From IMG/VR virus record IMGVR_UViG_3300048591_000212: 35,123 nt of DNA; one strand, given 5' to 3'. The notes beneath the pieces are model-generated. The model had not been told where the DNA came from and searched no databases. It saw only the letters and a list, made by a program, of their open reading frames with translations. Position numbers and translations under genes: made by a program. This document shows positions 1 to 20,214 of this stretch, piece after piece; the first letter of the stretch is position 1, and every line of letters begins with the position of its first letter. The stretch comes from a virus. Taxonomy: Duplodnaviria; Heunggongvirae; Uroviricota; Caudoviricetes.

Positions 1-2
1 AG

Positions 3-410
3 TGGTATCGAGATTGGGGATGGGTGGCTCCTGATGGAGATATTATTTCTGGTCTGATGCGAAAGGATATGACAACGCACGAACAGCTTTATAAGGATAT
101 TGTTGGTGAGACGAGATATAAGAAATATAAAAGAATCTCATTGTCAAATGCGCTCGTCAAGTATGGCTGGATTCGGTGGTTCACTTACAAAAATCCTGAT
201 GGATATTATGTTTTGACCTGTGTTGGCATTAATCACGAAGGAATAGACAAAAAAATCACCAAGCTCTATCGACACGTGAAAAAGGATATTTCATATATCG
301 AAATTGATCTGGTTCTAAGTAATAAGAAGACTCATAAGTTCTTTTCGGGTTCGAATCTGGAAGAGGTTCTTCGGGAATTTTCGGCGTATGTGAATAAGGG
401 AAAAGGATGA
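3..410 (+). CDS. 5'-truncated protein carrying the WGWxxPDG...H...GWIR domain
   Basis: Frame 3 is open from the window start (WYRDWGWVAPDGDIIS...HEQL...YGWIRW). The same motif occurs twice in the C-terminus of 1306..4290. Confidence 0.75.
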   Translation, partial: WYRDWGWVAPDGDIISGLMRKDMTTHEQLYKDIVGETRYKKYKRISLSNALVKYGWIRWFTYKNPDGYYVLTCVGINHEGIDKKITKLYRHVKKDISYIEIDLVLSNKKTHKFFSGSNLEEVLREFSAYVNKGKG

Positions 411-1309
411 AAACATTCAAAGAACACGCAAACATATATATAACCGAATCAGCAAGAAATAGTTATGAGGGAGTCTATGAGCCAATTAATAGTAAAGAAG
501 CTGTTCGGCTTCATGGTGACATTCTGAGGAAGTATTTTTCTGGTAAAAATAAAATATACCGTGGAGCTTTGGCGAAAAACTTTTTACCAGACAACAGTGT
601 TTATTATGGTCATGGAGAAAAGATACAAAGAAAGAGTGCATTTGCCGATAACAATCTTTATACAATTCTTATGTCAGAGATTTTGCCGTCATGGAGATCA
701 TATCCGAAGAGAAACAATTCATTTATTTGTACGAATAGTACCGAAAAGGCAGTTGACTACGGAAGAGTCTTTCACCATATTCCGTTGGAGAATCAAAAAA
801 TTGCTATATGTGCTGCCCCGGATTTGTGGGGAGCATTTGACTATATGAGGGATAAAATTGATGTTTATATTTTGAATGATTTCAATCATGAAATCTATAA
901 GTTTTTTTCGGTTATTATCGCTAAAGGTGGATTTTCCGAATACATTAAACTTACAGATGAAGTTTTTGATTCAAAGGATTCCACTATTAGATTATTTAAT
1001 ATGGTTGAAAACTATCTTAACACAAATAAAAACGCTGAAAAAATTTTGAAAGATGTTCCGAGCTTTTATCCAAAAGTCAGAAAAATTCTCAAAGTGATTG
1101 CTGATACACCAAACTTTTCTTTTATTGATTATTTTGATGATCTAATGAAACCAACAAACAATGATTTTGGTTTGAAAACTTTTGATGAATACATTACAAA
1201 TCATTCGTCCGATTCTGAATCAGAACTGTGGTTTAGTGGTAAATGCTTAGTGGTTGAATCAAACTTTGATACGATAAATTTTATGCGAAGGGAGCTTGAT
1301 TTGAAATGA
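407..1309 (+). CDS. Putative internal head protein, possible ADP-ribosyltransferase-like fold
   Basis: N-terminus MKTFKEHANIYITES resembles the T4 internal-protein capsid-targeting leader. IYRG / SFICTNS / ESELWF are spaced like an R-S-E ART triad (inference). ATGA coupling with the upstream gene. Confidence 0.55.
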   Translation: MKTFKEHANIYITESARNSYEGVYEPINSKEAVRLHGDILRKYFSGKNKIYRGALAKNFLPDNSVYYGHGEKIQRKSAFADNNLYTILMSEILPSWRSYPKRNNSFICTNSTEKAVDYGRVFHHIPLENQKIAICAAPDLWGAFDYMRDKIDVYILNDFNHEIYKFFSVIIAKGGFSEYIKLTDEVFDSKDSTIRLFNMVENYLNTNKNAEKILKDVPSFYPKVRKILKVIADTPNFSFIDYFDDLMKPTNNDFGLKTFDEYITNHSSDSESELWFSGKCLVVESNFDTINFMRRELDLK

Positions 1310-4290
1310 AAACATTCAAGCAAGTATTGACCGAGGCCCAGAACATAGACAAGGCCGTTGAAATTCTTCGGAATACCATCAAAGGAACCGAATGGGAGAA
1401 TCGTCTCTTTATAGCCGGGGGAGCTATTCGTGATGAACTTTTGGGAAAAGAAGTAAAGGACGTTGACTTTGTGGTTGATGGTGGCCCAGAAGCCGGAATG
1501 GATGCCGCAACCTTTATTGCCAAGAAACTCGGAGTATTCAAACAGGATTCAAATCCGGTTTTGTTTCCTACCTATGGCACAGCCAAGTTAACAATGAACG
1601 TGGATGGAGAGCCAATTGATATTGAATTTGTGGCACCCAGAACTGAAAAATACGAACCGGGCAGTCGAAAGCCTTTGGTGTCTCCGGGTACTCTCGACGA
1701 CGATGCTCACCGTCGAGATTTTACAGTAAATGCTCTTTTCAAAAATCTCACAACAAATGAAATTCTCGACCTGACGGGCAGAGGACTAACTGATCTCAAG
1801 AATAAGATTCTTCAGACAACCGGGAATGCCGACTGGATTTTCTCGGAAGATCCTCTGAGAATTCTGAGGGCCGTTCGGTTTGCCCTGAAGTACGACTTTC
1901 GGCTTCCTCTGGATGTTATTAAAGCAATCAAGAAAGCCTCACCTGATTTGGCAAATATTTCAGCCGAGAGAATTCAGGACGAATTAAAGAAGATTCTGGT
2001 TCTGGATAAGCCATCAAGAGCCATTCGTTTGTTCAAGATGACCGGAATTCTGAAGATGATTTTGCCGGAATTACAGGAATTGGTTGGCCTGAAACAAAAT
2101 ATGTACCATAAGGATGATGCTTTTTATCATACTTTGGAAGTTCTGGATAATACTCCTGCGGAATTTTCCAGAAGACTTTCAGCCCTGTTTCATGACATTG
2201 GAAAGGCCGCAACTCGTACCGAAAAGGACGGCAAGGTTCAGTTTATTGGACACGCCAATGTCGGTGCTGAGATAGCAAAGAAGGCAATGAAGAGATTGAA
2301 ATATCCGAATGATATTATTGATATGGTTGCCGATATGACAAAGTACCACATGGATCTAAAGTCTGCTGGACCTGAGGCCGAGTTATTAAAGGATTCTACT
2401 CTGAGAAAATTTGTATTTCGTGTGGCAGATAGACTTGAACCATTGTTAGATGTGATTCATGCCGACAATATTTCCCATACTCCAGAATATTCTATGCCGA
2501 AGCAGATTGAAATTATTCGAAAAAAGCTGGCAAACATGGATATTAATTCTATTTTGAATACCAAGTCGATTCTGGATGGAAATGAGATTAAGGAACTTGG
2601 TGCAGTCGGCAAGGAAATTCGTGAAATAAAGGACAGAATTCTGACCAAGGTTCTGGAAAATCCAGAATTTACTCGGCAACAGGCAGTCGGTTTGGCTAAG
2701 AATATGATTGATTCTTTTAGGAAAAAGAAGTTGTCTGAAAATACTCAAGAAGATGATCTTTGGGAGGTTAAGCGTGGAGCTTTGGATAAGAGAGATGAAA
2801 CCTATCGCCTAATGGTTGGTCTGCTTGGGGTTCAGGTAGACTCCCAGACCCGAAAGGTTTATTCTCCACCGGAATACATGATTCGGAGATTCAAGAAAAA
2901 GAAAATTACTGATACTCTGTACCAGACAATCAATTCGAATGGTTCTGAAATCTATACAATATGGAACGAAAAGACCGATATTCCGATTGCCTATCTAAAA
3001 CTACTGAAGGCCGACCTATTCGGAATTCCTGTGAAGAAAGTTAATATTGCCTTTGTACATCCGAGACATCAGGGCAAGGGAATTATGAAAGGAATATATA
3101 CCACTCTGATTCAGCAGCGGGGAATGACCTTTATTACAGGAGACTATCAATCCGCTGGTGCCGAGAAGCTATGGAAATCTCTCTATAATACCAATGAGAT
3201 TGAAGTATTTGCCATTAGCGAGGACGGAAAGATTTTGGAGGTAAGGCCGACGGCGAATGGTCTCGAAGGAATAAATGGCGAAGACTTGTTTGATTATAAT
3301 CGCGATTCATATAAAGATAACTATACTCTGGTAGCTACCATAAACAAGGAGAAATTCTCCGAGGGCCTGAATGAAGACATTTTTTCTTTTCATGAATACG
3401 ATGATTGGGGATTCATTAAGCCGGATGGATCTCTGCTGTCGGCGGTGTCTACTCCAGCAGTTAGAAAATTCGTTGATCGGAAAAACTCCAAGAACTTCTT
3501 TGTTCCCAGATTTGGGGCCATGCACTATGATGTTTTAGGAAAATTCTATTCATCATTTGATTTGAAAAAGAAACAGGAGCATAATTTTTTTGAGGCATTT
3601 AAGGAAGGATGGGTTCGGTATATCATTAATGATAATGAATTATTTCTGCACCTGAAGCCCGGAAGTATCGTTCCTGAAAATGTTCTGAAGGGAATTAGGC
3701 AGATGATATATCCGTTTTCAGTGGTCAATTTTGATTTTCAAAAGAATCTAAGGACCACAAAGAAAACGACCATTGAGCGGGCCAATCTGAACAAAATCAA
3801 GAATGTCATCAGTAATCATCCAGATGCAGCCGAGGCCCCAAAGAGAAAGTCCCTCAAGGAAGCCGACGCCCATCCGAAGCATAGAGAATGGGGCTGGATT
3901 CTTCCGAATGGTCAGATTCTTTCAAATAAGTCCACACCAGAAGTAATCGAATTCATTGAAGGAACACCTGATTTGGTTCATCATTTTGAGGTACTTCAGG
4001 AATTTACGAACTTTGATAGAATGTCGGACGTGCTGGAGGAGGGCGGCGTTCGCTTTATCGTAGAAGGAAATACTGCCTTTTTGGATATATATCCACCAGC
4101 AATCGAGCCGAGATTCATTTATACAAAAGCGACATTCTTGATAAATTGGGTATTTGTCAAAAAAGTCATAATCGGCTTCAATGACTATTCTGATTATTCT
4201 CAGGAAGGCTGGATGGAATTTAATTCCACGCCGAAGAGTCTACTGAATGATCTGAAGGAAATCAAGGCCAAGTACAATGAGGAAGAATAA
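1306..4290 (+). CDS. cca: CCA tRNA nucleotidyltransferase (class II, with HD domain) fused to a GNAT acetyltransferase and two repeated unknown domains
   Basis: Motifs GGAIRD..DVD, RRDFTVNAL, EDPLRILRAVRF and FHDIGK. GNAT motif A VHPRHQGKGIMK. Two DWGFIKPDG / EWGWILPNG domains. Confidence 0.9.
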   Translation: MKTFKQVLTEAQNIDKAVEILRNTIKGTEWENRLFIAGGAIRDELLGKEVKDVDFVVDGGPEAGMDAATFIAKKLGVFKQDSNPVLFPTYGTAKLTMNVDGEPIDIEFVAPRTEKYEPGSRKPLVSPGTLDDDAHRRDFTVNALFKNLTTNEILDLTGRGLTDLKNKILQTTGNADWIFSEDPLRILRAVRFALKYDFRLPLDVIKAIKKASPDLANISAERIQDELKKILVLDKPSRAIRLFKMTGILKMILPELQELVGLKQNMYHKDDAFYHTLEVLDNTPAEFSRRLSALFHDIGKAATRTEKDGKVQFIGHANVGAEIAKKAMKRLKYPNDIIDMVADMTKYHMDLKSAGPEAELLKDSTLRKFVFRVADRLEPLLDVIHADNISHTPEYSMPKQIEIIRKKLANMDINSILNTKSILDGNEIKELGAVGKEIREIKDRILTKVLENPEFTRQQAVGLAKNMIDSFRKKKLSENTQEDDLWEVKRGALDKRDETYRLMVGLLGVQVDSQTRKVYSPPEYMIRRFKKKKITDTLYQTINSNGSEIYTIWNEKTDIPIAYLKLLKADLFGIPVKKVNIAFVHPRHQGKGIMKGIYTTLIQQRGMTFITGDYQSAGAEKLWKSLYNTNEIEVFAISEDGKILEVRPTANGLEGINGEDLFDYNRDSYKDNYTLVATINKEKFSEGLNEDIFSFHEYDDWGFIKPDGSLLSAVSTPAVRKFVDRKNSKNFFVPRFGAMHYDVLGKFYSSFDLKKKQEHNFFEAFKEGWVRYIINDNELFLHLKPGSIVPENVLKGIRQMIYPFSVVNFDFQKNLRTTKKTTIERANLNKIKNVISNHPDAAEAPKRKSLKEADAHPKHREWGWILPNGQILSNKSTPEVIEFIEGTPDLVHHFEVLQEFTNFDRMSDVLEEGGVRFIVEGNTAFLDIYPPAIEPRFIYTKATFLINWVFVKKVIIGFNDYSDYSQEGWMEFNSTPKSLLNDLKEIKAKYNEEE

Positions 4291-4292
4291 TT

Positions 4293-5909
4293 ATGCCACA
4301 AGAGAAAATATACTATCTAAATCCGAACATCAAAAAGTCCAATGTCGTCGAACAGTTCACTGAAGAACAGGTTCAGGAATATATCAGGTGTTCTAAAGAT
4401 CCTATCTATTTCATTGAGAAATATGTGAAAATTATCTCAATTGATCATGGTCTGATTACCATAAAATTGGCCGAATTTCAAAAGGGACTGATAGATAAGT
4501 ATATGTCTAATCGTTTCAACATCATCACTGCTTCGAGGCAGGCATACAAGACAACTACAACTGTAGTATTTATGTTATGGTATTCAATATTTCATGATAA
4601 TAAGTTTATTGCTATTCTTGCAAATAAGGCCGAGACCGCCAGAGAAATTCTGGATAGAATCTATACTGCCTTGGAGCATGTGCCATTCTTTCTTCAGCCG
4701 GGTGTAAAGGAGTTAAATAAAGGCTCTGTTGAATTTGGAAATGGAACAAAGATTATGGCCTCGGCTACATCCAAAAGTTCTATTCGTGGTCGCTCGGTTG
4801 CTCTTTTGTATATTGACGAATATGCCTTCGTAGATAATGCGGAAGAATTTTTTAGGTCCACCTTTCCGACAATTTCATCTGGTGCCGAATCAAGAGTCAT
4901 TATTTCGTCAACTCCTCTCGGCCTAAACCATTTCTATAAATTATGGAAAGATTCAAACGAGGGCAGAAATAAGTTTGTTCCAACTCAGATTGAATGGTAT
5001 GACGTTCCGGGAAGGGATGAAAAATGGAAACAGGAGCAACTTGAGATTCTCGGAGAGCATGACTTCCGACAAGAATATGGAAATGAGTTCTTGGGGTCGG
5101 CGAATACTTTAATTGCTGGCTGGAAGCTCAAGGAAATGACACACGAGACTCCAATTCGATCCGACCTACATTATACAATAATCGAAGATCCCAAACCAGA
5201 TAATTCCTATATAGCAGTAGTGGATGGTTCCAGAGGAATCAATAATGATTATTCTACTATAACTGTTGTTAATATTACTGAATATCCTTTCCGAGTTGTC
5301 GCCACATATCGGAACAATGAGATTTCTACTCTGCTGTTTCCGAGACTGATTGTGGATTTTTGTAAAAAATACAATGATGCCTACTTATTAATTGAAAGAA
5401 ATAACATGGGCGATGCTATTGCCAAGGAATGTTATTACGAAGAGGGCTACGAAAATGTAATCTGTGCTAAGTCCGGTGGACGAAGGGGCCAGATTACTTC
5501 CCTTTCCCCAAAAAAGGACACTCTGCCGGGAGTTGAGATGACCAAATCAGTAAAGAGAATTGGTTGTTCAATTCTCAAAAATCTAGTAGAGGACGACAAA
5601 CTCATTTCCTTTACCGAGGACATTATTCTGGAATTGTATAATTTTGTTGGAAAGGCCGACACATTTCAGGCCGACGAGGATAAGCATGATGATTTGGTGA
5701 TGAATCTGGTTCTGTTCTGCTGGTTTGCCGACCAGCCACTATTTAAGGAAATTGCTGATATTAGTATTCGGGGCAAGATACGGGAGCCTGATCCAGAAAC
5801 CAAAATTCATATATACCAGTCACTCTCGGACGAAGACGAGGCAGTTAATTTATATAATGATGAATTGGCCGAGACCTTTCGATTGTTGGGTATAACTTCT
5901 CCTTCCTAG
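4293..5909 (+). CDS. gp17: Terminase large subunit (T4 gp17-like)
   Basis: DPIYFIEKY, Walker A-like SRQAYKT, Walker B LLYIDEYAF, SSTPLG, FRQEY, HDDLVM; located before the sheath gene. Confidence 0.95.
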   Translation: MPQEKIYYLNPNIKKSNVVEQFTEEQVQEYIRCSKDPIYFIEKYVKIISIDHGLITIKLAEFQKGLIDKYMSNRFNIITASRQAYKTTTTVVFMLWYSIFHDNKFIAILANKAETAREILDRIYTALEHVPFFLQPGVKELNKGSVEFGNGTKIMASATSKSSIRGRSVALLYIDEYAFVDNAEEFFRSTFPTISSGAESRVIISSTPLGLNHFYKLWKDSNEGRNKFVPTQIEWYDVPGRDEKWKQEQLEILGEHDFRQEYGNEFLGSANTLIAGWKLKEMTHETPIRSDLHYTIIEDPKPDNSYIAVVDGSRGINNDYSTITVVNITEYPFRVVATYRNNEISTLLFPRLIVDFCKKYNDAYLLIERNNMGDAIAKECYYEEGYENVICAKSGGRRGQITSLSPKKDTLPGVEMTKSVKRIGCSILKNLVEDDKLISFTEDIILELYNFVGKADTFQADEDKHDDLVMNLVLFCWFADQPLFKEIADISIRGKIREPDPETKIHIYQSLSDEDEAVNLYNDELAETFRLLGITSPS

Positions 5910-6001
5910 AAAACCTATTTTTCATAAATAGATAGACAGACAAATACAAGATACACAAAGAGATTTTTGATATATTGTAATCTATTTTAGGAGAAAAAAA
6001 T

Positions 6002-7693
6002 ATGACGACATTTTTTAATTCCCCACAAGTTGCCACAAGAGAGGTAGACCTAACTACTTCCGTTGTGGCACCTGCCTCTGGCACCGTGGCGATTGCTGGT
6101 GCCTTTACTTGGGGTCCGGTTAAACAAATTGTGAATGTTGGTTCAGAAGATGAAGTGGTGAGCATCTTCAGAAAACCAGATAATGATACAGCGGCAACCT
6201 TCTTCACCCTAGCAAATGCTCTTTCCTATACCGGAAATGCCAGAGTCGTTCGTGTTGGAGCATCTGGAATGATCAATGCAACATCCGGTTCGACTGGCGT
6301 TCTGGTAGAAAACGAAACTGATTATACTCAGAATCATTCTGCCGGAATTTCTGGAACAACATGGGTTGCAAAATATCCGGGTACTTTGGGAAATTCAATT
6401 GGGGTGTCAATCTGCGATCAGCAAAAGTTCGCTAATTGGTCCTTTGCTGGATTTTTCTCTTCGGCTCCGTCAACGAGTTCCTTTGCTGCCAGAACAAATG
6501 CCAATGCAAATGATGAATTACATATTGTGGTTTATGATGCAACCGGAGCAATTACCGGATCGGCAAATACGATTCTCGAAAAATATGAATTCGTTTCCAA
6601 GGCCGCTGGAGCCAAGACCGAAAATGGAGAAAATAACTATTACAAGGACGTAATTAACAGAAAGTCCGAATGGATCTGGTGGGGAAATCACCATGCTGGT
6701 GCTACCGCTCCCGGCGTGGCATGGGGTTCGACTGTTCCGGGGGCAACTGGCTTTGCTACCTTTGGGGCAACTGGCCCGATCTATCAGACCTTGGCTGGTG
6801 GTGTTGATGCAAATGTTCTTCAGTCGGCTCATGAAATCGCCGGATATGATCTGTTTAAGCCAGATAATGTTGAATATGATTTTCTGATGGCTGGTGGATC
6901 TCTACCAACAACGGTCGAATATCTGATCGATAATATTGCCGAAGTTCGTAAGGACGTTATTGTTACGCTGTCCCCTGAAAAGGATGACGTTGTGGATAAT
7001 TTCGAATCCGAGGTAACCGACACGACTGCTTTCAGAAATACTCTGAATTCTTCGACCTATGCGTTTTTGGATTCGGGCTGGAAGTACCAGTATGACAAGT
7101 ACAATGATGTGTTCCGCTGGATTCCTCTCAATGGTGATACCGCTGGCCTGATGGCTCGTGTTGATCCTTGGGTGTCTCCTGCTGGCCTAAATCGTGGATT
7201 CGTCAAGAATGTTTTCAAGATGGCATGGGAGCCTTCGAAGGCAGATCGGGATCTGATCTATCCGGTTGGTATTAATCCGGTAATGACTGTAGAGGGACAA
7301 GGAGTTGTTCTGTTTGGAGATCGAATGATGACTTCGAAACCTTCGGCCTTCAGAGACGTGAATGTTCGCAGATTGTTTATTCTTTTGAGAAAGGCAATCT
7401 CCAGAACTGCCCAATTCACTTTGTTTGAATTGAATAATGAATTCACGCGGGCGCGTTTTGTGGCAACCGTCGAGCCTTTCCTGAGAGACCTAAAGGGCCG
7501 TGGGGCAATCATCGATGGTCTGGTAAAATGTGACGACAAGAACAATACTCCACAGGTAATTAACACCAATTCATTTGTGGCTGATATTTTTATTAAGCCG
7601 CCACGCAGCATCAACTATATCCGACTGAACTTCATTGCGGTTCCAGAAGGAATTAGCCTGACAGAGATCGCAGGATCTAACCAATTATTCTAA
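6002..7693 (+). CDS. gp18: Tail sheath protein
   Basis: SPQVATREVDLT, GAFTWGP, KYQYDKYND..RWIPLNGD, SPAG..RG, NVRRLF. Confidence 0.95.
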   Translation: MTTFFNSPQVATREVDLTTSVVAPASGTVAIAGAFTWGPVKQIVNVGSEDEVVSIFRKPDNDTAATFFTLANALSYTGNARVVRVGASGMINATSGSTGVLVENETDYTQNHSAGISGTTWVAKYPGTLGNSIGVSICDQQKFANWSFAGFFSSAPSTSSFAARTNANANDELHIVVYDATGAITGSANTILEKYEFVSKAAGAKTENGENNYYKDVINRKSEWIWWGNHHAGATAPGVAWGSTVPGATGFATFGATGPIYQTLAGGVDANVLQSAHEIAGYDLFKPDNVEYDFLMAGGSLPTTVEYLIDNIAEVRKDVIVTLSPEKDDVVDNFESEVTDTTAFRNTLNSSTYAFLDSGWKYQYDKYNDVFRWIPLNGDTAGLMARVDPWVSPAGLNRGFVKNVFKMAWEPSKADRDLIYPVGINPVMTVEGQGVVLFGDRMMTSKPSAFRDVNVRRLFILLRKAISRTAQFTLFELNNEFTRARFVATVEPFLRDLKGRGAIIDGLVKCDDKNNTPQVINTNSFVADIFIKPPRSINYIRLNFIAVPEGISLTEIAGSNQLF

Positions 7694-7706
7694 GGAAAGA
7701 GAAACC

Positions 7707-7744
7707 ATTTATAGAAGGGAATTTCGAAATTCCCTTCTATAAAT
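7707..7744. repeat. Perfect 38-bp palindrome containing a late promoter (terminator/cruciform candidate)
   Basis: ATTTATAGAAGGGAATTT-CG-AAATTCCCTTCTATAAAT. Confidence 0.9.
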
Positions 7745-8357: not shown

Positions 8358-9974
8358 ATGTCATTATTTGATTTTTTCGGCTTCGAGATAAAAAGAAAGG
8401 ATAATTCTGAGCAGAATCTTTCGGCTGTTGTTCCACAAACAGATACCGAGGGCGGGCAGATTATTGATAGAAATGCGAGTGCTTTTACTACTCTTTCTTA
8501 TAATCTTGACTTTACGGCAGAAGACTCGGCATCTCTGATAAACAAATATCGAGAACTTTCCATTCAGTCTGATGTTGAATCCGCAATTGACGAAATCATC
8601 AATGAGGCAATCTATATTGGAGAATTTGAATCTCCAATTTCATTAAATCTGGATAACCTGAAATTTTCTGATAATATTAAGGATCTGATTCAGAAAGAAT
8701 TTCAATATATTCTGAATCTTCTGAACTTCAATGAAAATGCCTATGAAATCTTCAAGAGATGGTATGTCGATGGCAGGCTCTATTTCAATATTGTGATCAA
8801 TCTAGACAAGCCCAAGGAAGGAATTCAGGAGCTTCGGTATATTGATCCTCGTAAGCTGAAGAAGATTAAAGAAGTAAAGAACGAGAAGATTGTGGGTAGT
8901 TCCATTATTCCGATTGATTTTAGAGAATATTATCTCTATGATGGTTTTTCAAAGGAGATTCCGGTTGATGCTGTGGCCTCGGCTACTTCTGGTTTGGTTG
9001 ATGATAAAAATTCGGCAATTGTTCTGTCCTACCTTCATGGAGCCATTAAGCCTTATAATCAGCTAAGAATGCTCGAAGATTCAATGGTCATTTATTACCT
9101 GTCGCGGGCCACCGAACGACGAGTCTTTAATGTGGAGGTTGACACGATTCCACAACACAAGGTCGAGCAGTACATGAATGCGATCATTCAGAAATTCAAG
9201 AATAAGATCGCCTATGACTCTCAGACAGGAAATCTTCGGGATGACGTGAAGACTCTTTCAATCATGGAAGACTTTTGGTTTCCAATGAGAGAGGGCAAGG
9301 GAACCACCGTCACTTCTCTGGCTGGTGGACAAAATCTAAATGATCTGTTGGCTTCTTCGGAATTTTTTCAAAGAAAATTCTATCGGTCTCTGAGAGTTCC
9401 AATGGGCCGAATTATTGGTGGAGAGAATTCGACATTTAATACTGGTCGGGCCACTGAAATTGCCCGCGAGGAACAGAAATTCAGCAAATTTATTAAGCGG
9501 CTCAGAATGAGATTTTCTTCTCTATTTACAGACATGCTAAGAGTTCAGTTGGTTCTGAAGAATATTATTTCAGCCGAAGAATGGAATCTCCTTGTTAACA
9601 ATAATTTGTACTATGATTTTAGACAGGACTCTCACTTTGCTGAATATAATGAATCAGAAATTGAGTCTCGTAGAATGGAACTCGCGGCTCAGGCCGAGGG
9701 TCTAAGGGATCATTTCAGTAAGAAGTATATTCAGAAGAATTTTCTTCGGCTGTCAGAAGAAGATATCAAGGAAATCGAAAAGGACAAGCTATTCGAAAAG
9801 AATAAGAAAAAGACACCAATTGAAGATGAAGAGACTATGGGTGATGACGAGTTTGGAGACTTCTCACCAGCACCGAGAACTCAGACATCATTTAACCAGC
9901 CGTCGGTTCCTCCGACTCCAGCTACCTCAGAACCGAAGGAGCCAGAGACGCCAACGCCAACACAGGAGACATAA
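8358..9974 (+). CDS. gp20: Portal protein
   Basis: FKRWYVDGRLYF, ELRYIDPRK, SYLHGAIKPYNQLRMLED, EDFWFP.REG. Confidence 0.95.
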   Translation: MSLFDFFGFEIKRKDNSEQNLSAVVPQTDTEGGQIIDRNASAFTTLSYNLDFTAEDSASLINKYRELSIQSDVESAIDEIINEAIYIGEFESPISLNLDNLKFSDNIKDLIQKEFQYILNLLNFNENAYEIFKRWYVDGRLYFNIVINLDKPKEGIQELRYIDPRKLKKIKEVKNEKIVGSSIIPIDFREYYLYDGFSKEIPVDAVASATSGLVDDKNSAIVLSYLHGAIKPYNQLRMLEDSMVIYYLSRATERRVFNVEVDTIPQHKVEQYMNAIIQKFKNKIAYDSQTGNLRDDVKTLSIMEDFWFPMREGKGTTVTSLAGGQNLNDLLASSEFFQRKFYRSLRVPMGRIIGGENSTFNTGRATEIAREEQKFSKFIKRLRMRFSSLFTDMLRVQLVLKNIISAEEWNLLVNNNLYYDFRQDSHFAEYNESEIESRRMELAAQAEGLRDHFSKKYIQKNFLRLSEEDIKEIEKDKLFEKNKKKTPIEDEETMGDDEFGDFSPAPRTQTSFNQPSVPPTPATSEPKEPETPTPTQET

Positions 9975-9977
9975 AAT

Positions 9978-10136
9978 ATGAAAAACGCAGAAAAAATCAA
10001 GGAACTTATTCGGAATATTAATGAAAAGAAAGGCACAGAAGTAGAACGCCTGTCTCGTCAGTTAATTTCGGAAAAGGTTTTTAATATTATCGAAAAGAAA
10101 AGAGAAGAAATCCGAGTGGGGTTTAACGGAAGATGA
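9978..10136 (+). CDS. Small prohead core protein (gp67-like by position), 52 aa, not in the ORF track
   Basis: MKNAEKIKELIRNINEKK...KKREEIRVGFNGR; AGGAG upstream; directly after the portal gene. Confidence 0.6.
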   Translation: MKNAEKIKELIRNINEKKGTEVERLSRQLISEKVFNIIEKKREEIRVGFNGR

Positions 10137-10549
10137 ATATTCTAAGAACGGCCTTTGTATTTTTGATTTTGGCTACTGTCTCGGCACTTGCCCAAGATCC
10201 AAGTCTTACAGTAAATGTGACTATTCCTGTTGGAACTGCTGTTTCGAGTCCGGTTACTCTAAGGGCCGGGTGTATTCCGGGAGCGATTATTATTCCTTCT
10301 GGCTGGACTGCGGCGAATCTAACTTTTAGGGTTTCGAATGATAATGGCACAACATGGGGAAATCTTCGAGATGAATTTAAGACTGAAATTGTTGTGTCTG
10401 TTCAGGATGCAAGTGATGTCATTCGATTAAATCCGGCAGACTGGTACTGGATGAGAAATCGTAGTCTGATAATTCGTTCTGGTACTTCTACTTCTCCGGT
10501 AAATCAGACGGGAACGGATAAGGTTCTGAAGGTGCTATGCGGCAGATAA
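10133..10549 (+). CDS. Beta-rich protein with an N-terminal signal peptide
   Basis: MNILRTAFVFLILATVSALA-Q signal-like N-terminus; PSGWTAANLTFRVS.DNG.TW motif. Confidence 0.75.
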   Translation: MNILRTAFVFLILATVSALAQDPSLTVNVTIPVGTAVSSPVTLRAGCIPGAIIIPSGWTAANLTFRVSNDNGTTWGNLRDEFKTEIVVSVQDASDVIRLNPADWYWMRNRSLIIRSGTSTSPVNQTGTDKVLKVLCGR

Positions 10550-12399
10550 TTCTTTCTTTAGTATTAACATTTGCATTAGTTTTTACTGGAACGGCTCAGA
10601 ATGTTGATAATATTCCTTTGCATTTTCTGAGCAAGTCCTCGAATACGGCCTTGGTTCGGAATGGTCTGACGGCGGGTTGGGATCTGCGGACGGGGAACCT
10701 GCTGCTGTTCTCGGAGGCGCTGGATAATGCGGCGTGGACAAAAACCCGCACAACGACACCCGCCGCAAACCAAATCATTGAAACAGCGACGACAGGCGCT
10801 CACCAGATTTCGCAGGCCATAACATTCGCCGCTGGCGCTTACTCGTACTCCGTCGATGTCAAGCCAAGCGGGAGAGATTGGGTGAAGGTTTTCGCTTTTG
10901 ACGGCACGGCATTTCCAGTCGCGTGGGTGAATACGGCTACCTGCGCCACTACGACAGTCACTGGGGCGACGGCAACCGCAACGGCAGTCGATGATGGATA
11001 CTGCCGAGTTGTTCTGAATTTTACAGCCAGCGCCGGAAGTGGCTTTGTTTATATGCAATTACTGCTTAACGGCTCCACTGATAGCTACGCTGGCGACATC
11101 ACAAAAGGCGTCCTGGTCCGCCGCGCCCAACTCAACTCCGGCACCACCCCCCTCCCCTACATAGCGACGGGGGATTTGCAGAGCGTGCCCAACCTTGTCC
11201 CCGGCGGCGCGGCGCTGCAACGGGGATCGGCGGCGGGGGTGGACACGAATGATCCCAGTATCGACCCCCTGTTCTGGTGGTTCGACTTGACCGACGATTT
11301 TGTGACTGGCGTTCCAGCGCTGGCCTCGCAGTACACGATTCTTGCGCTTCATGGATGGCCGAATACGCGCCTGCACGCCTACGATTCTGTCGGGAATGGA
11401 TGGCAGGATGGCGCTCCAAATTCGCTGGTGCAGGTGTTCCAGCCGCAATCGGCGGCGAGTGGTGCGGCGGGAACGAAACGATATGCCGCGCTCTCCCGCT
11501 ATTTCCAATACAACCGCGTGTTGAACCCCCGCGACCATCGACAGATGGGGCAATGGCTAAAGCCGTTTCTCTACCAGAAGACGGCCAACGTCATTCAGTA
11601 CGGGCACTACGGCAACAATCAGCCGACGATTCGCATGGACTGGACTGGCGGCGGCGCGGCGACGGTGGATTGGGGGGATGGGAGCGCGACGCAGAATCTC
11701 ACGTCAGGCGTCAACCTGCAAAAAACGGCGGCGTATTCTGGCGGGTTTCATATCGTGCGAGTGACGGTGCCGAGTGAGGCGGTAGTGACTCAATTCTACA
11801 ACAATTCGGCGCAGATGACGGGAAACCTGCCCGACATCTCCGGCCTGACGAATCTGGCGCAGTGGTACTCTTACGGCAACCAGCACACGGGGCCGCTGCC
11901 CGACATCTCCGGCCTGACGAATCTGACGGTGTGGTCCTCCCACACCAACCAGCACACGGGGCCGCTGCCCGACATCTCCGGCCTGACGAATCTGGCGGTG
12001 TGGTCCTCCCGCACCAACCAGCACACGGGGCCGCTGCCCGACATCTCCGGCCTGACGAATCTGGCGCAGTGGTACTCTTACGGCAACCAGCACACGGGGC
12101 CACTGCCAAATTTCTCAGCACTGAATAACCTCACAATCGTCGAAATACACAGCAACCAGCACGCAGGATTCTCCGGAACAATCGGCAGCCGCAAGCTCAC
12201 GCGATTCTGGGCATACAACAACTTACTTTCCAGTGCCAACGTAAACGCCATTCTCGCCGCCCTTGTGGTGGCTCAGGCTGGAGGCAATCCCGTTTGCGAT
12301 GTCAATTTGGGGGGCACCGGGAACGGCGCACCCACTGGGCAGGGACTCACGGACAAGGCCACGCTACAGGCGGCGGGCTGGACGGTGGCGACGAATTGA
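10537..12399 (+). CDS. Signal-peptide protein with a fibre/spike-like N-terminal domain and C-terminal leucine-rich repeats
   Basis: Signal-like N-terminus; NLLLFSEALDNAAWTK; VDWGDG; four 23-aa LPDISGLTNL...NQHTGP repeats; clearly GC-rich. Confidence 0.85.
   Translation: MRQIILSLVLTFALVFTGTAQNVDNIPLHFLSKSSNTALVRNGLTAGWDLRTGNLLLFSEALDNAAWTKTRTTTPAANQIIETATTGAHQISQAITFAAGAYSYSVDVKPSGRDWVKVFAFDGTAFPVAWVNTATCATTTVTGATATATAVDDGYCRVVLNFTASAGSGFVYMQLLLNGSTDSYAGDITKGVLVRRAQLNSGTTPLPYIATGDLQSVPNLVPGGAALQRGSAAGVDTNDPSIDPLFWWFDLTDDFVTGVPALASQYTILALHGWPNTRLHAYDSVGNGWQDGAPNSLVQVFQPQSAASGAAGTKRYAALSRYFQYNRVLNPRDHRQMGQWLKPFLYQKTANVIQYGHYGNNQPTIRMDWTGGGAATVDWGDGSATQNLTSGVNLQKTAAYSGGFHIVRVTVPSEAVVTQFYNNSAQMTGNLPDISGLTNLAQWYSYGNQHTGPLPDISGLTNLTVWSSHTNQHTGPLPDISGLTNLAVWSSRTNQHTGPLPDISGLTNLAQWYSYGNQHTGPLPNFSALNNLTIVEIHSNQHAGFSGTIGSRKLTRFWAYNNLLSSANVNAILAALVVAQAGGNPVCDVNLGGTGNGAPTGQGLTDKATLQAAGWTVATN
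11827..12102 (+). repeat. Four tandem 69-bp repeats encoding LRR units
   Basis: Units start at 11827, 11896, 11965 and 12034. Units 1 and 4 are identical except for the last base. Confidence 0.95.
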
Positions 12400-12810: not shown

Positions 12811-13101
12811 ATGGAAGAAACTCTAGAAATTATCAACGAACGCCGAGTAAAGGTTGGTACTGGTGTTGTCCGAGTTGACCGAATTAGAAAAGGTAAGACT
12901 CAGAGAAAAAAACTAAAGTCAACTCGTAAGGGCTATAAAATGGTCGGTCGAAGATCCGTAAGACAGAATCCAACCGAGCGAAGAAAACGGAGAATTGGTA
13001 CTCGTCGGGCAACCCGTAAGCGGGCAGCGAAGATGAACCGGATTTTACTGAAGAGAAAGATTTCAATTAAAAGAGGAAAGAGACAAGGACTATACCGATG
13101 A
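12811..13101 (+). CDS. Basic prohead core protein (gp68-like)
   Basis: Extremely R/K-rich 96-aa protein between portal and protease. Confidence 0.6.
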   Translation: MEETLEIINERRVKVGTGVVRVDRIRKGKTQRKKLKSTRKGYKMVGRRSVRQNPTERRKRRIGTRRATRKRAAKMNRILLKRKISIKRGKRQGLYR

Positions 13102-13439
13102 ATATTAAAGAATTTAGAAAGCTATACGAGAAAGTTAAGTTGGATGAGGCAGCAAACGATAGGGTCGTTTGGTTGGTTGCTTCTGATGAAGAAATTGTTG
13201 CATCAGAGCCAACCAATTTTATGAGAATTACTGAAGAAATTTTCGAAAGATCAATGAAGAATGCTGATCTAATGTCGCCCGATATGGAATTAGAAAAGAC
13301 TCCAGATGCCAAAAAGTTTCTGTATTCGGTGAATACTGGCGATAGTGAAAATGAGGTTGCTTGGATTCTATCCACACCAAATTCTAAAAATTTTTTGGAA
13401 TCTATTGGCTGGAAAACCAAAAAGACGAATTATAGGTAA
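13098..13439 (+). CDS. Putative internal head protein
   Basis: Leader MNIKEFRKLYEKVKLDE-A shared with the next gene. Confidence 0.65.
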   Translation: MNIKEFRKLYEKVKLDEAANDRVVWLVASDEEIVASEPTNFMRITEEIFERSMKNADLMSPDMELEKTPDAKKFLYSVNTGDSENEVAWILSTPNSKNFLESIGWKTKKTNYR

Positions 13440-13445: not shown

Positions 13446-13670
13446 GTGAATATTAAAGAATTTAGAAAGCTATACGAGAAAGTCAAGTTGGAAGAGTCCA
13501 ACCCCAAACCCGAAAAAATTATTCAAGAATTAGAAGACTTAAAGGCTTTCGTTGATGAAACATATAGAATGTGGAAAGAAGGCACAAAATTGGTGGAACT
13601 TGATGATGCTTTCGAAGATATTAAAATGGAAATTCAGAATATTATCAATCATAATACAAGCAAAAAATAA
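13446..13670 (+). CDS. Putative internal head protein (GTG start)
   Basis: Leader MNIKEFRKLYEKVKLEE-S. Confidence 0.65.
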   Translation: MNIKEFRKLYEKVKLEESNPKPEKIIQELEDLKAFVDETYRMWKEGTKLVELDDAFEDIKMEIQNIINHNTSKK

Positions 13671-13674: not shown

Positions 13675-14337
13675 ATGCCACTACTACTAAGACAGCTACT
13701 CACCGAATCAATTGAAGTAAGCAAGGATTCTGCGTCCAAAAATTACTTCATTGAAGGACCATTTATCGTTGCCGAGGCCCAGAATAAAAATGGCCGAAAG
13801 TATCCCAAGGCCGTCGTGGAACAGGAAGTTGAGAGATATCGTAAGGAATGCATCGATGATTCTCGTGCCTATGGTGAACTGATGCACCCGACTGGTTCAG
13901 ATCCTTCAATCAATTTTGACAGAGTTTCTCATCGAATTGTTTCTCTGGAACAACAGGGAGATGTCTGGATTGGAAAGGCAATTGTGGCCGATACCGACAA
14001 GGGGAAAATCGTCAAGGCCCTGATCGATATTGATGGAAAATTGGGAGTGTCTTCTCGCGGTCTTGGAACAATTCAGGAAGAGGGCGGTGTCCAGATTGTC
14101 CAGAATGATTTCAAATTAATCACCGCCGCCGATATTGTCTTTGAGCCATCGGCCCCCGGAGCATGGGTCGAGGCCGTGATGGAAGATGCAAAGGAATGGT
14201 ACTGTGATCTAAATGGTGAGTGGCATTATGTGATGGGCGAATACAAGAAAGAGATCCATGACACTCCAAAGAATCTTTTGGAAGAAAAGTACAAAGAGGT
14301 TTTTGTTAATTTTATCGAAAGGTTATCGAAATCCTAA
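13675..14337 (+). CDS. gp21: Prohead core protease (likely start 13675)
   Basis: IEGPF, NKNGRKYP, YGELMHP, DRVSH, GVSSRGLG, ADIVFEPSAPGA. Confidence 0.95.
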   Translation: MPLLLRQLLTESIEVSKDSASKNYFIEGPFIVAEAQNKNGRKYPKAVVEQEVERYRKECIDDSRAYGELMHPTGSDPSINFDRVSHRIVSLEQQGDVWIGKAIVADTDKGKIVKALIDIDGKLGVSSRGLGTIQEEGGVQIVQNDFKLITAADIVFEPSAPGAWVEAVMEDAKEWYCDLNGEWHYVMGEYKKEIHDTPKNLLEEKYKEVFVNFIERLSKS

Positions 14338-14379: not shown

Positions 14380-15498
14380 ATGAAAATTTCAACGATTGAA
14401 AAAATCTTTGAAGGTCTGGATCTAAGCCCAGAAACAAAGAAAGCCATTAAAGAGAGTTTTGACTCTGCCGTTGCAGAAAAAGTCAATGCCATGCGCGAAG
14501 AAGAACTGGACTTGGACGAAGCCGAAGGCGACGAGAATTTGGTTCCCGATACCACAGAGGCGATTGGTCAATTTCTGAAGAATCTTCGCACAGATCCAGA
14601 ACTATTGAAAGTTATTCGTCCTTATGACAAGGATAATGAAGAAGTTACTATTACTGACATTCAGACTTCGTTTCGTAGAATGTTGGATAAGTCGAAGAAT
14701 GTCAAGCAGGACGATATTGCCCTTCAGTTCATTTTCACTATTTTTGATCTGATTGCAAACAATCAAACGGTCGCAAATGCCATTGCTCGTGCATTGGGTA
14801 AGCCGGGTTCCGAAGAAGAAATGGTTCCAGTCGAAGGCGATGAGATGGTTGCCGAAGCCGATGTTGACGTTATTGATGTTGAGGAAGAAGAGGACGAAGA
14901 GGAAGTTATTTCTGAGGCAATGGTCAGTGCCGTGGATTCCTACCTTTCCTATATTGCCGAGGAATGGATGACGGAGAACAAGCTGGCTGTCGAGAACGGA
15001 ATCAAGACCGAATTGGTCGAATCCTTCATGGTTGGCCTGAAGAATCTCTACAAGGAACACGCAATTGAGGTTCCCGATTCAGTTGACGTTGTTGAAAAGC
15101 TGAACGAAAAAATCGATATCATGGAAGAAAAACTGAATAAGTCAATCGAAAAGAATGTTCAATTGAGAGAATCCTTGGAAGAGGAGAAGCGTAAAGTTCT
15201 GGTCGAACAGGCTCGAATTGAGTTTGTGCTTGCCACATCTGATCTTCCGAAGTCCAAGATTGAGAAAATTCAGAAACTAGAAGAAAACTTCAAGTTTGAA
15301 ACTCTGGACGAATACAAGGAAAAGTTGGGTCTTCTGATCGAATCTGTGACGGATGAGGCTTCTGCTTCTAAGAAAGAAAAGACAATTCTGAAGGAAGAAG
15401 ACCTGAATACCTCTGGTGATTCGACGATCACCGAGGCCGAAGAAATCGATCCAAGAGTTGCGAAGTACGCCAAATTCATCAAGGGGGAGAGAGAATAA
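14380..15498 (+). CDS. gp22: Prohead scaffolding protein
   Basis: VDSYLSYIAEEWMTENKLAVENGIKTELVESFM; acidic coiled coil. Confidence 0.9.
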   Translation: MKISTIEKIFEGLDLSPETKKAIKESFDSAVAEKVNAMREEELDLDEAEGDENLVPDTTEAIGQFLKNLRTDPELLKVIRPYDKDNEEVTITDIQTSFRRMLDKSKNVKQDDIALQFIFTIFDLIANNQTVANAIARALGKPGSEEEMVPVEGDEMVAEADVDVIDVEEEEDEEEVISEAMVSAVDSYLSYIAEEWMTENKLAVENGIKTELVESFMVGLKNLYKEHAIEVPDSVDVVEKLNEKIDIMEEKLNKSIEKNVQLRESLEEEKRKVLVEQARIEFVLATSDLPKSKIEKIQKLEENFKFETLDEYKEKLGLLIESVTDEASASKKEKTILKEEDLNTSGDSTITEAEEIDPRVAKYAKFIKGERE

Positions 15499-15577: not shown

Positions 15578-16849
15578 ATGGAAATCAAAGACCTTTTGAA
15601 GAAATGGCAACCTATTCTGGAAGCGAAAGAACTTCCTGAAATTAAGGACCAGTACCGCAAGGAATGTACTGCCATTCTTCTGGAAAATCAAGACAAGTGT
15701 AATCAGCGTGAAAATCAGGTGCTTGCAGAATCGGCTCCTGCTAACGTCACTGCTAATGTTTCGAAATATGATCCGGTGCTAATTCAGCTAATTCGGCGTA
15801 TGGCTCCAAATCTGATGGCCTATGACGTTTGTGGTGTTCAGCCCATGGATCTTCCGAATGGTATCGTCTTTGCCATGAGAGCAAAGTACGGAACCGGAGC
15901 AACCGGTCCTCTGTCTGCAACTGAGGCTCTGTACAATGAAGCAAATACCGCATGGTCTGGAACTGGTACTCATGGTGCCGATATCATTCCTTCCGGTATT
16001 GGTGGGGCAACTGGCGCATTGGCGTCGTTTGGCGTTGCTGCCGCAACCGCTTCGTTGGAAGGTGCTGCTCTGAATAAGATGGGTGTGACTATTGAGAAAG
16101 TAACCGTTGAGGCAAAAACTCGTGGTCTGTCCGCTGACTTCAGCTTGGAACTGGCGCAGGACATGAAAGCAGTTCACAAGCAGGATGCTGATACAGTAAT
16201 CAGTGACATTCTGAATACTGAATTGCTGTCCGAAATTAACCGTGAAGTTATTCGTACCATTTATAAAATTGCTAAGTTCGGGGCGCAGTCTCGTACAGCA
16301 AATGCTGGTGGTATTGACCTTGATGTGGATACCGATGGACGTTGGTCGGTGGAAAGATTCAAGGGTCTTCACTTCTATGTTGAATCCGAGGCCCATCAGG
16401 TCGCGAAGACGACTCGTAGAGGAAAGGGAAATATTATCATCTGTTCCGCAGATGTGGCTACTGCTCTGGCAATGTCTGGACAGCTAGACTATGCTCCTGC
16501 TCTTTCTACTGATCTGACTGTTGACGACACAGGAAATACATTTGCTGGTATTCTGAATAAGAAATACAAGGTTTATGTTGACCCTTACTTCTCGTCTGGC
16601 GATGCGACTTGGACGGACATTATGGTCGTTGGCTATAAGGGTTCTAATGCCCTTGATGCCGGATTATTCTACTGTCCTTACCAGCCACTAGTGAAGTTGA
16701 ATGCAGTTGACCCAACGAACTTTACTCCAGTGATGGGATTTAAGACTCGTTACGGTATGGTTGCCAACCCTCTCAATGGAGACGGAACAACTCTGGCTGC
16801 AAATAGCAACTTCTACTACCGCCGAGTGCTTATCAGCAACATTCTGTAA
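15578..16849 (+). CDS. gp23: Major capsid protein
   Basis: KWQPIL, LLENQ, CGVQPM, ELAQDMKAVH, EINREVIR, GLFYCPY, GFKTRYG; L-A-E cleavage site. Confidence 0.97.
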   Translation: MEIKDLLKKWQPILEAKELPEIKDQYRKECTAILLENQDKCNQRENQVLAESAPANVTANVSKYDPVLIQLIRRMAPNLMAYDVCGVQPMDLPNGIVFAMRAKYGTGATGPLSATEALYNEANTAWSGTGTHGADIIPSGIGGATGALASFGVAAATASLEGAALNKMGVTIEKVTVEAKTRGLSADFSLELAQDMKAVHKQDADTVISDILNTELLSEINREVIRTIYKIAKFGAQSRTANAGGIDLDVDTDGRWSVERFKGLHFYVESEAHQVAKTTRRGKGNIIICSADVATALAMSGQLDYAPALSTDLTVDDTGNTFAGILNKKYKVYVDPYFSSGDATWTDIMVVGYKGSNALDAGLFYCPYQPLVKLNAVDPTNFTPVMGFKTRYGMVANPLNGDGTTLAANSNFYYRRVLISNIL

Positions 16850-18247: not shown

Positions 18248-18601
18248 CTAAAAAATCTCCTCTTCAATAAACTGCGGCTGCATCCAGTATTCCACTTTTT
18301 CTCGAACCTCAAGTTCAATCTGCTCCTGAGTCTTCGCACCAGCCAACTGCGAGGCCCGCATCTTGATCCAATTTTTCAGGACTGGAGAGTTCGCCAGCCG
18401 ACGAAAAGCGATCTTTTCATTCTGAGCCTGAGACCTTTCATCGCAGGACTGTCCGGTTGCTCCCGACTCAATATGAGTAAATCGGACGCCAGTTTCTCTT
18501 CTATTGACGTTTTGCCCACCATTACCACCACACCGAAAGGTGTCTCGCTTCAGGTCTTTTTTGGTTATTGAAAAGAGTAGTTGCTTCGGCTTCATTCCCA
18601 A
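18248..18601 (-). CDS. Class I release-factor GGQ-domain protein (ArfB/PrfH-like peptidyl-tRNA hydrolase)
   Basis: CGGNGGQNVNRRETGVRFTH..SG..ERSQAQN. Confidence 0.85.
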   Translation of the reverse strand: MGMKPKQLLFSITKKDLKRDTFRCGGNGGQNVNRRETGVRFTHIESGATGQSCDERSQAQNEKIAFRRLANSPVLKNWIKMRASQLAGAKTQEQIELEVREKVEYWMQPQFIEEEIF

Positions 18602-19086
18602 TCTGGCTCCCTTTCAAATCGCAATCGAATTTGCGTCAGAATTTTTCCTAAAAGATTCTGACCTCTCCACATGTGAGGATAGAACCTTCGTTCATCGGTA
18701 TCACTGAGGCCAATTCCCCAGATCACATCAAGAGGAGACGCCTCGACAATAAGCGTTCCTTTGGTGTCTAGAAGAACATTTCGTGGATGACGACACTGTT
18801 TGAATTTGTAAATATTGATTGTCTTTACGATAATCTCTCTGAATCGAGTCCATCTTTCTTCATCAAAGTTTCGAACTCGCCTTCCAAGAACTTTTTGTTC
18901 CTTCGGCCCCAGAGCCTTCAGAATCAGATCGGCAGTATCGGCATCCTTAAACAATAGTGCCTTATGGTACATCGTGGCCTGTTCAGCACAATTGAACTCA
19001 ATTCCATTTATTTTGAATTTACAGGGATACCACTGAGACAGAGGGCCGCCCCGAAAGAAGGAAAATTTAGTGAATTGATCAATCAT
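18592..19086 (-). CDS. NADAR family protein (YbiA / T4 30.3-like)
   Basis: LSQWYP, AEQ..M..KA, EASPLDVIWGIG, GQNLLGKIL. Confidence 0.92.
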   Translation of the reverse strand: MIDQFTKFSFFRGGPLSQWYPCKFKINGIEFNCAEQATMYHKALLFKDADTADLILKALGPKEQKVLGRRVRNFDEERWTRFREIIVKTINIYKFKQCRHPRNVLLDTKGTLIVEASPLDVIWGIGLSDTDERRFYPHMWRGQNLLGKILTQIRLRFEREPDWE

Positions 19087-19119
19087 TTTTTATTCTCCCA
19101 AAAAGATATACAAATCATT

Positions 19120-19260
19120 CAATTCTTTTTTAATTAATTGAATCTGCTTCTTTTTGTTTTCATGGGAGGCTTCATAGATTTCATATTGAGTCTCACAATA
19201 CCTCAACCATTCATCGTTGCGCTCCCGTTCCTCGGCGTCCCACTGCGCCCAACCAGACAC
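19120..19260 (-). CDS. Small hypothetical protein (46 aa, GTG start)
   Basis: Fills the gap directly after the stop of 19262..19498. Confidence 0.4.
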
Positions 19261-19261
19261 T

Positions 19262-19498: not shown

Positions 19499-19514
19499 AA
19501 TATAATCCTTTCTT

Positions 19515-19919: not shown

Positions 19920-19935
19920 AATATTTCTTTCATGG

Positions 19936-20024: not shown

Positions 20025-20033
20025 ATGAGAGAG

Positions 20034-20105: not shown

Positions 20106-20214
20106 ATGGTGGTGATCGTGGGGGCGATATGCCAGCGCATCAGTGTTGGAACCGATGCGCTTGTTAAACTCCTGAGTATGTGCGGTTAGCATGTTCTTTT
20201 TCCTATCTATATTT

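Follow-up and report, generated by a model that had tools for sequence, protein, structure and literature searches.

A four-module polyprotein built around a CCA-adding enzyme as probable head cargo of an uncultured T4-like phage

The open reading frame (ORF) at positions 1306-4290 of a 35,123-nucleotide stretch of phage DNA (IMG/VR virus record IMGVR_UViG_3300048591_000212; hereafter the window) encodes a protein of 994 residues that, judged from its sequence, is probably a head-cargo polyprotein of a T4-like phage. The initial annotation of this stretch had described a leader, a CCA-adding enzyme with an HD domain, a GNAT acetyltransferase and two repeats, A and B, on one chain, and our analysis finds all of them on this single ORF (Table 1). 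In the mechanism that we propose, the polyprotein would be synthesized late, sharing a transcript with the terminase, and its T4-type leader of 10 residues would bring it into the scaffolding core of the prohead. There the gp21-type S77 protease would cut after E10 and then at the border sites E478, E686/E690 and E852, which would free a 53-kDa CCA-adding/HD enzyme, a 24-kDa acetyltransferase and two small proteins carrying the WGW domain of the repeats. These pieces would remain in the DNA-filled head and exit with the DNA at the next infection, with the benefit that, from the very start of infection, a CCA enzyme would be at hand to build the 3'-CCA of tRNAs or restore it; the acetyltransferase would be delivered too. 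The steps differ in how secure they are: packaging is likely, cleavage at the internal sites is probable, and ejection followed by early function has about an even chance.

The leader, MKTFKQVLTE↓A (the arrow marks a predicted cut), had been likened to the capsid-targeting leaders of the T4 internal proteins, and comparison with the T4 genome sequence (NC_000866) upholds this match. The ipI gene encodes MKTFKEFTSTTTPVSTITE↓A (MKTFKEF..ITE↓A) and ipII and ipIII encode MKTYQEFIAE↓A, the first five residues of the target leader being those of IPI. For IPIII, the first 10 residues are enough for head targeting, with positions 4 and 7 acting in targeting and positions 8 and 10 directing processing (PMC9026906). 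The target leader fits this rule with an aromatic F4, a hydrophobic V7, L8 and E10, and the propeptide ends L8-T9-E10 before the small residue A11. A PHROG family annotated as internal virion protein gives a weak match to residues 1-28 (E 0.017).

The leader is portable, near-identical copies being present on unrelated neighbouring cargo genes. The adjacent upstream gene, for a protein of 300 residues, starts MKTFKEH..ITE↓S, and among the real ORFs of the window an MKTF start is found only in this gene and in the polyprotein. In relatives of the phage, an unrelated cargo of 157 residues starts MKTFKQILRE↓Y, a WGW protein (P0130; P numbers denote homologues) encoded directly after the small terminase (TerS) gene starts (V)IKTFKEFSINE↓A, and a free-standing CCA enzyme, 88% identical and encoded directly before the large terminase gene (TerL), starts MKNFKDFLLE↓N. 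The codons of these leaders differ synonymously, which points to selection on the leader peptide. Because relatives place varied leader-bearing genes there, the interval between gp16 and gp17 is a variable island of such cargo genes.

Residues 11-478 are, by their sequence, a class II CCA-adding enzyme with an HD domain, for which CCA addition is the predicted activity. Residues 34-169 match PolyA_pol (PF01743, 80.4 bits), residues 197-257 PolyA_pol_RNAbd (PF12627, 57.9 bits) and residues 290-379 HD (PF01966, 46.1 bits; FHDIGK is present), against Pfam cut-offs of 23, 22 and 22, respectively, and the 994-residue protein matches the PHROG tRNA nucleotidyltransferase family phrog_2244 with an E-value of 1e-64. 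The catalytic and templating motifs of CCA enzymes are GGxVRD, DxD, RRD and EDxxR; all of them are present in the translation, as GGAIRD (residues 38-43), DVD, HRRDFTVN and SEDPLRILR. Matches in the PDB are solved CCA enzymes and poly(A) polymerases (E 5e-33), and the alignments begin at about residue 15-33.

The direct Pfam match of the second module to GNAT is weak (E 0.16), but its identity holds transitively. An exhaustive HMMER search with residues 480-994 returned only 36 relatives, nearly all covering residues ~540-680, and this region matches P0122 (E 2e-11), P0124, P0139 and others at E-values from 2e-11 to 1e-5. P0122 (PF00583, 40.6 bits) and several other relatives of the region exceed the Pfam GNAT cut-offs, which carries the assignment over, and the sequence HQGKGIMK aligns on the QGxGxG column of GNAT motif A.

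The two C-terminal modules, which we term WGW domains, are homologous to each other (BLASTP E 1e-11, 33% identity), with W, G, P, S, H, G and R as invariant residues, and a third copy is found at the end of the 5'-open ORF at the left edge of the window. AlphaFold2 run on the single sequence of residues 460-994 gave a predicted local distance difference test (pLDDT) score of 37, and a model of copy B from a 5-row alignment reached a moderate 60.5. A Foldseek search of this model against the PDB returned nothing at E <= 0.001, its best VIA-align score (Z = 5.5, gelsolin-like) lies under the tool's noise level of 7-8, and the ESM Atlas neighbours of the domain are weak (PD-(D/E)XK, TM 0.4-0.5), so that no fold is assigned. 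A word-indexed homologue search with copy B gave 0 matches, and no relatives of the C-terminal half of the polyprotein were found in the viral and metagenome contigs scanned. The fusion itself is not an assembly artefact, because a near-identical protein (P0002, eight substitutions) with identical 994-residue architecture and sites comes from a second assembly. Complete cleavage of the chain would yield, after a leader of 1.2 kDa, products of 52.7, 24.4, 18.9 and 16.5 kDa.

The three junction motifs (E478, E686/E690 and E852) do lie at the domain borders where the initial annotation had put them. At junction 1, a free-standing CCA enzyme (P0158, 88% identical) ends 3 residues beyond the aligned E478 site, and free-standing GNAT homologues start with M[KR][LIF]xE aligned on E478. 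In this column [LI]xE is conserved among homologues with other C-terminal cargo, and the sequence beyond it diverges completely into that unrelated cargo. At junction 2, which has two adjacent sites, free-standing GNATs end at the ..LVAT.. column (residues ~675-683), just upstream of E686/E690, and the WGW motif of copy A starts 8 residues downstream. At junction 3, the EWGW of copy B follows E852 at a distance of 9 residues; in the free-standing P0130, the INE↓A of the leader lies 6 residues before DWGW. Since all three junctions coincide with borders that are set independently by free-standing homologues, they are more than chance.

A length-restricted homologue search found 853 proteins that share only the CCA part with the polyprotein. 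The extra domains that flank CCA in these homologues include phage lysozyme, Hydrolase_2, NUDIX, ART-PolyVal, cytidine/dCMP deaminase, GNAT, 2H/LigT and AAA_33, among others. Most of the proteins begin with a leader of about 10 residues of the MIKLKxLLxE type, regardless of the domain that comes next, and in marine relatives this leader stands on many cargos. Internal CCA domains are directly preceded by ..NKxL[LV]ME↓[AGS].. or by IKLKDLLLE↓G (P0015). When [LIVMF]xE was scored within an 11-residue window before the first helix in about 240 metagenomic homologues, it was found ahead of the CCA domain in 96 of 102 internal and 93 of 98 N-terminal cases, against a background of 10.9%, the counts not being phylogenetically independent. 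The counted homologues are mostly less than 50% identical, and their flanking domains differ. Another 36 close CCA homologues have no leader and start 21-32 residues before GGxVRD, which makes the leader a separable add-on. The prediction that the leader and the L-x-E junctions would be conserved among homologues while the cargo varies has thus been borne out.

These data bear on two readings in which the protein enters the head and meets a different fate. In the first, only the leader would be removed, leaving an intact 110-kDa 'polyvalent' effector in which the internal LxE motifs are leftovers of gene-fusion linkers. Polyvalent proteins are large multidomain proteins delivered by the virion (PMC5512222), and the junctions do resemble relic leaders, as in the P0015 sequence given above and in the M[KR]LxE starts of free-standing GNATs. 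Unselected relics would decay, however, and yet 94% of the internal junctions keep hydrophobic-x-Glu at less than 50% identity; in gp22, gp67, gp68 and Alt of T4, sites that are accessible, whether internal or C-terminal, are cut by gp21 (PMC5694885, PMC9026906), and a chain of 110 kDa would be harder to eject than pieces of 17-53 kDa. We therefore consider an intact effector unlikely. In the second reading, the protein would mainly fill the core or scaffold and would be broken down and expelled, as gp22, gp67 and gp68 are, with enzyme domains that have no role after injection. Although T4 core proteins, which bear such sites too, are cleared from the head (PMC5694885), this fate is highly improbable for a chain that retains intact CCA catalytic motifs, HD domain and GNAT motif A and whose LxE sites cluster at borders, folded domains normally being spared. 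The varied enzymatic cargo over hundreds of homologues likewise argues for a function after delivery.

A third alternative has no connection with the capsid: an ordinary cytoplasmic multidomain tRNA-maturation enzyme, whose extension and linkers are kept for folding, solubility or translation initiation. ARAGORN identifies seven tRNA genes at 19936-30258 of the window, and only those for Tyr and Gly encode the 3' CCA. According to the proposed mechanism, the five others would be served by the injected enzyme, together with host tRNAs damaged at their 3' end; the same five would provide an ordinary cytoplasmic job for a CCA enzyme, with no need for packaging. Leaderless CCA enzymes are, moreover, common in cultured phages, A/T-rich MK.. 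starts are common, and one leader-bearing homologue lies in a non-structural region. What such an enzyme would leave unexplained is that the leader is common to unrelated neighbours and the T4 internal proteins, that the 36 leaderless homologues keep the CCA domain, and that the same motif returns before the CCA domain when other domains precede it. Lysozyme, SleB-type wall hydrolase and ART-PolyVal partners make no sense for tRNA maturation, and late synthesis with the terminase is bad timing for maturing tRNAs in the same cycle. A purely cytoplasmic enzyme is thus, in our estimate, improbable.

Along with the tRNA genes and the non-independence of the homologue counts, several further points weigh against packaging and cleavage of the polyprotein. 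The 994-residue protein contains 25 [LIVMF]xE motifs in total, and any single site is weak evidence. The homologue in the non-structural region, the leader-bearing free-standing CCA enzyme P0169, sits among small non-structural genes. A conserved INE[IM]K tail, which many free-standing CCA homologues have close to their C-terminus, could be a structural helix and not a cut site. None of the cultured phages in the collection has a leader-bearing CCA homologue.

With regard to gene location, the CCA homologues P0011 and P0085 lie in T4-type structural modules beside gp13, and the neighbours of P0085 carry leaders. A structural-module location as a universal trait of leader-bearing CCA genes is ruled out by P0169; the ip genes of T4 likewise lie outside structural modules. 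We also considered a preparation of the podovirus SU10, in which a protein with a CCA nucleotidyltransferase domain was represented by one peptide among early proteins (PMC4281155). As proof of a packaged CCA enzyme this was rejected, a single peptide being most likely carry-over.

PHROG and Pfam matches to TerL, tail sheath, tail tube, portal, protease, scaffold and gp23 identify the window as the late module of a T4-like myophage that is uncultured. The start codon of the polyprotein overlaps the stop of the upstream gene as ATGA, and its stop lies 2 nucleotides before TerL, in agreement with the earlier placement of the gene directly before gp17 in the late module. The T4 late-promoter word TATAAATA occurs 8 times in the window against 1.06 expected, at 7738, 12793, 14342 and 15530 on the plus strand, just upstream of gp19, the gene of a basic 96-residue protein, gp22 and gp23, and at four more positions; no copy lies in 1-7737. 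As ATGA start/stop overlaps connect the three genes that precede TerL, these genes most likely share a transcript with the terminase genes, begun at a promoter left of the window. A late gene expressed with the terminase would be better placed for the next infection than for the current one.

The window also encodes the candidate protease. Its gp21 shares 35% identity with the T4 protein, aligns with it in the ELxHP and GVSSRGLG blocks and itself begins MPLLLRQLLTE↓S. Its gp23 is 43% identical to that of T4 and closer, at ~50%, to the gp23 of marine cyano-, pelagi- and methylophilales phages, and the VLAE-S site claimed for it is indeed found at the end of the propeptide. Hydrophobic-x-Glu starts at the N-terminus are present in every gene of the head-core region, namely those for the basic 96-residue protein, the 113- and 74-residue proteins, gp21, gp22 and gp23; in contrast, the tail sheath and portal proteins of the window have no such start. 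The genes for the 113- and 74-residue proteins stand where T4 has gp67/gp68, and their 5' ends form a direct repeat of 50 nucleotides (13099-13148 and 13447-13496, 96% identical) that encodes MNIKEFRKLYEKVKL(D/E)E↓, apparently a second class of portable leader in this phage.

Table 1. Features of the window around the predicted polyprotein and in the head-core region. Arrows mark predicted cuts.
Feature	Position	Strand	Remarks
3' end of cargo gene with third WGW domain	3..410	+	5' end outside window; homologue P0130
300-residue cargo gene (phrog_12810)	407..1309	+	leader MKTFKEHANIYITE↓S
Predicted cargo polyprotein ORF	1306-4290	+	one 994-residue frame, start MKTFKQVLTEA
Leader MKTFKQVLTE, predicted cut after E10	1306..1335	+	10 residues, capsid-targeting type
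Class II CCA-adding enzyme and HD domain	1336..2739	+	residues 11-478, 52.7 kDa; Pfam, PHROG
Junction 1, KKKLSE478↓N	2725-2742 (L-S-E 2731..2739)	+	free-standing CCA/GNAT ends and starts
GNAT acetyltransferase module	2740..3375	+	residues 479-690, 24.4 kDa
Junction 2, FSE686↓GLNE690↓D, two adjacent sites	3355-3378	+	GNAT end, WGW start
WGW domain copy A	3376..3861	+	residues 691-852
Junction 3, RKSLKE852↓A	3844-3864 (L-K-E 3853..3861)	+	WGW copy B start
WGW domain copy B	3862..4287	+	residues 853-994
Large terminase gp17 (TerL)	4293-5909	+	directly downstream of polyprotein gene
113-residue protein in head-core position	13098..13439	+	leader MNIKEFRKLYEKVKLDE↓A
74-residue protein, unrelated body	13446..13670	+	same leader as 113-residue protein (50 nucleotides, 96% identical)
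Prohead protease, T4 gp21 family (Peptidase_S77)	13675..14337	+	PF03420, 107.8 bits
gp22-type scaffolding core protein	14380..15498	+	PF25623, 166 bits
gp23 major capsid protein	15578..16849	+	propeptide ends VLAE51↓S

Indirect experimental support comes from virions of another phage, through homologues of the neighbouring leader-bearing gene. The 300-residue protein belongs to phrog_12810, a family of which the T4-core jumbo phages Atu_ph07 (gp55-gp65) and RsoM2USA carry tandem paralogues, with leaders such as M[KR]W[HEDQ]QLTE↓, MTTFKEYLTE↓ and similar ones. Before reading the published table of peptides identified by electrospray tandem mass spectrometry (ESI-MS/MS), we mapped the Atu_ph07 accession numbers to gene numbers. 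Each of the proteins gp54-gp65 was found in virions, by 3-15 unique peptides, and the leaderless CCA enzyme gp18 is absent from the virion table (PMC6102473 Table S5). The latter protein starts 23 residues before GG. The 300-residue protein of the window has no Pfam match and no PDB sequence match below E 0.5, and its identity as an ADP-ribosyltransferase is unsupported.

The closest mechanism among known systems is that of T4 IPI-III and Alt, and the closest architecture is that of the polyvalent proteins of Iyer et al. Common to the T4 system and the phage studied here are a leader of 10-19 residues with an MKT(F/Y) start and an (I/L)-x-E end before A or S, an encoded S77 protease and gp22 core, and diverse, fast-changing cargo behind a conserved leader. 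Alt, with propeptides at both ends, is a precedent for a packaged enzyme. In contrast, a tRNA CCA-adding/HD cargo is not known as a T4 head protein, and the T4 internal proteins are single small proteins, whereas four modules with cut sites at each border stand here on one chain. The phage further differs from T4 in having its cargo genes between gp16 and gp17 and in the divergence of its gp23 and gp21.

Polyvalent proteins likewise combine unrelated conflict-type enzyme domains on one polypeptide, are encoded beside virion genes and are predicted to accompany the DNA on delivery (Iyer, Burroughs, Anand, de Souza, Aravind 2017, PMC5512222). The polyprotein has the hallmark of at least two unrelated conflict-type catalytic domains (CCA/HD and GNAT, together with two WGW domains), with architectures that vary among its relatives. 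A Pfam search of the 994-residue protein found none of the signature modules MuF, zincin or other peptidases and ART-PolyVal, the last of which (PF18760) occurs only in the distant homologues P0089 and P0115-P0118. The polyvalent-protein paper does not mention CCA-adding enzymes, and it does not find T4-like Alt-family ARTs in genuine polyvalent proteins (PMC5512222). Unlike in those proteins, loading and dicing here seem to proceed through the T4 capsid-targeting sequence and gp21, and not through embedded MuF or zincin modules.

In the giant phages phiKZ, 201phi2-1 and SPN3US, too, a gp21-related prohead protease recognizes a short motif and cuts behind its Glu, identical N-terminal propeptides recur on paralogues, and a virion RNA polymerase is packaged and ejected (PMC5694885, PMC9026906). 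The identical propeptides of SPN3US gp53 and gp54 (PMC5694885) parallel the leader cassette of the 113- and 74-residue proteins. The motif in these phages is, however, (A/S/G)-x-E, the propeptides often exceed 100 residues, and no tRNA enzymes are reported among these head proteins. Free-standing phage and bacterial class II CCA enzymes, for their part, have the same catalytic head, RNA-binding and HD domains and motifs; they differ in having no leader, with alignments that begin near residue 30, and no C-terminal cargo modules. Full-text literature searches on the capsid-targeting sequence with CCA enzymes, polyproteins or cyanophage internal proteins yielded no account of the arrangement.

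If the proposed mechanism is correct, the T4 internal-protein paradigm, so far one of small inhibitors and Alt, would come to include whole enzyme kits that arrive as cleavable polyproteins, and tRNA 3'-end synthesis or repair would join the activities that a phage can inject. It would also explain the hundreds of environmental CCA genes fused to wall hydrolases, NUDIX, ART, deaminase, 2H and GNAT domains. A leader combined with hydrophobic-x-Glu borders would then be a sequence rule that predicts injected cargo, and candidate anti-defence proteins, in uncultured T4-like and huge phages, with the WGW domain and the phrog_12810 family as candidate injected effectors. The natural leaders and linkers might in addition serve the T4 protein-packaging platform. 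More tentatively, aquatic T4-like and huge phages might possess a general modular system in which leader-headed, hydrophobic-x-Glu-flanked enzymes are loaded, diced by gp21 and injected, with CCA/tRNA-end-repair enzymes among the commonest cargo. Such phages would bring along an activity that matures and repairs tRNA 3' ends, and would pre-empt tRNA-targeting abortive infection before phage gene expression. A counter-defence role against tRNA-targeting defences is speculation.

Some observations concern relatives of the CCA enzyme. In P0215-P0277, the C-termini of the free-standing CCA enzymes often read ..INE(I/M)K(R)xMxxxx, ~10 residues from the stop, and this tail may be either a structural helix or, as in T4 Alt, a propeptide at the C-terminus. 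The CCA part finds its best database match (L003 727-4428; LR756501, a 735-kb huge phage) in the C-terminal domain of a protein of 1233 residues that starts MITKFKLFEY and has a deaminase-like module and repeated DPYGEEDWE linkers, NMLNE↓A preceding the CCA domain. A 188-kb contig with a leaderless CCA enzyme (L012) encodes peptidoglycan hydrolases (Peptidase_M23, PG_binding_1) at 864-1976, 2620-2922 and 8849-10273, with the starts MKVKITE, MKMIITE and MKYIITE, another lineage-specific leader on wall-degrading cargo.

Two features stand out in the closest relative (L009, 307-639 and 2379-2916). One is a NUMOD3 homing-endonuclease-like gene that lies between two cargo genes in opposite orientation; the other is a TerL frame that ends after 120 residues, with a Cys-rich ORF behind it, an arrangement suggestive of a mobile insertion in gp17.

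Within the window, the minus strand at 18248-25500 encodes an RF-1/GGQ-domain protein, a DNA ligase and an Rnl-type RNA ligase near the tRNA genes; the phage therefore has more RNA-repair and translation-rescue genes outside the head cargo. At 12811-13101, 11 nucleotides downstream of TATAAATA, lies the gene for the very basic, Arg/Lys-rich protein of 96 residues (MEETLE↓IINE↓R...), which may be a DNA-condensing internal head protein. Between portal and protease, at 10133-12399, are two ORFs with signal-peptide-like N-termini, neither of which has a PHROG or Pfam match; such ORFs are unusual in a head operon. One of them, of 620 residues, contains tandem PDISGLTNLxxWxSxxNQHTGPL repeats that resemble leucine-rich repeats.

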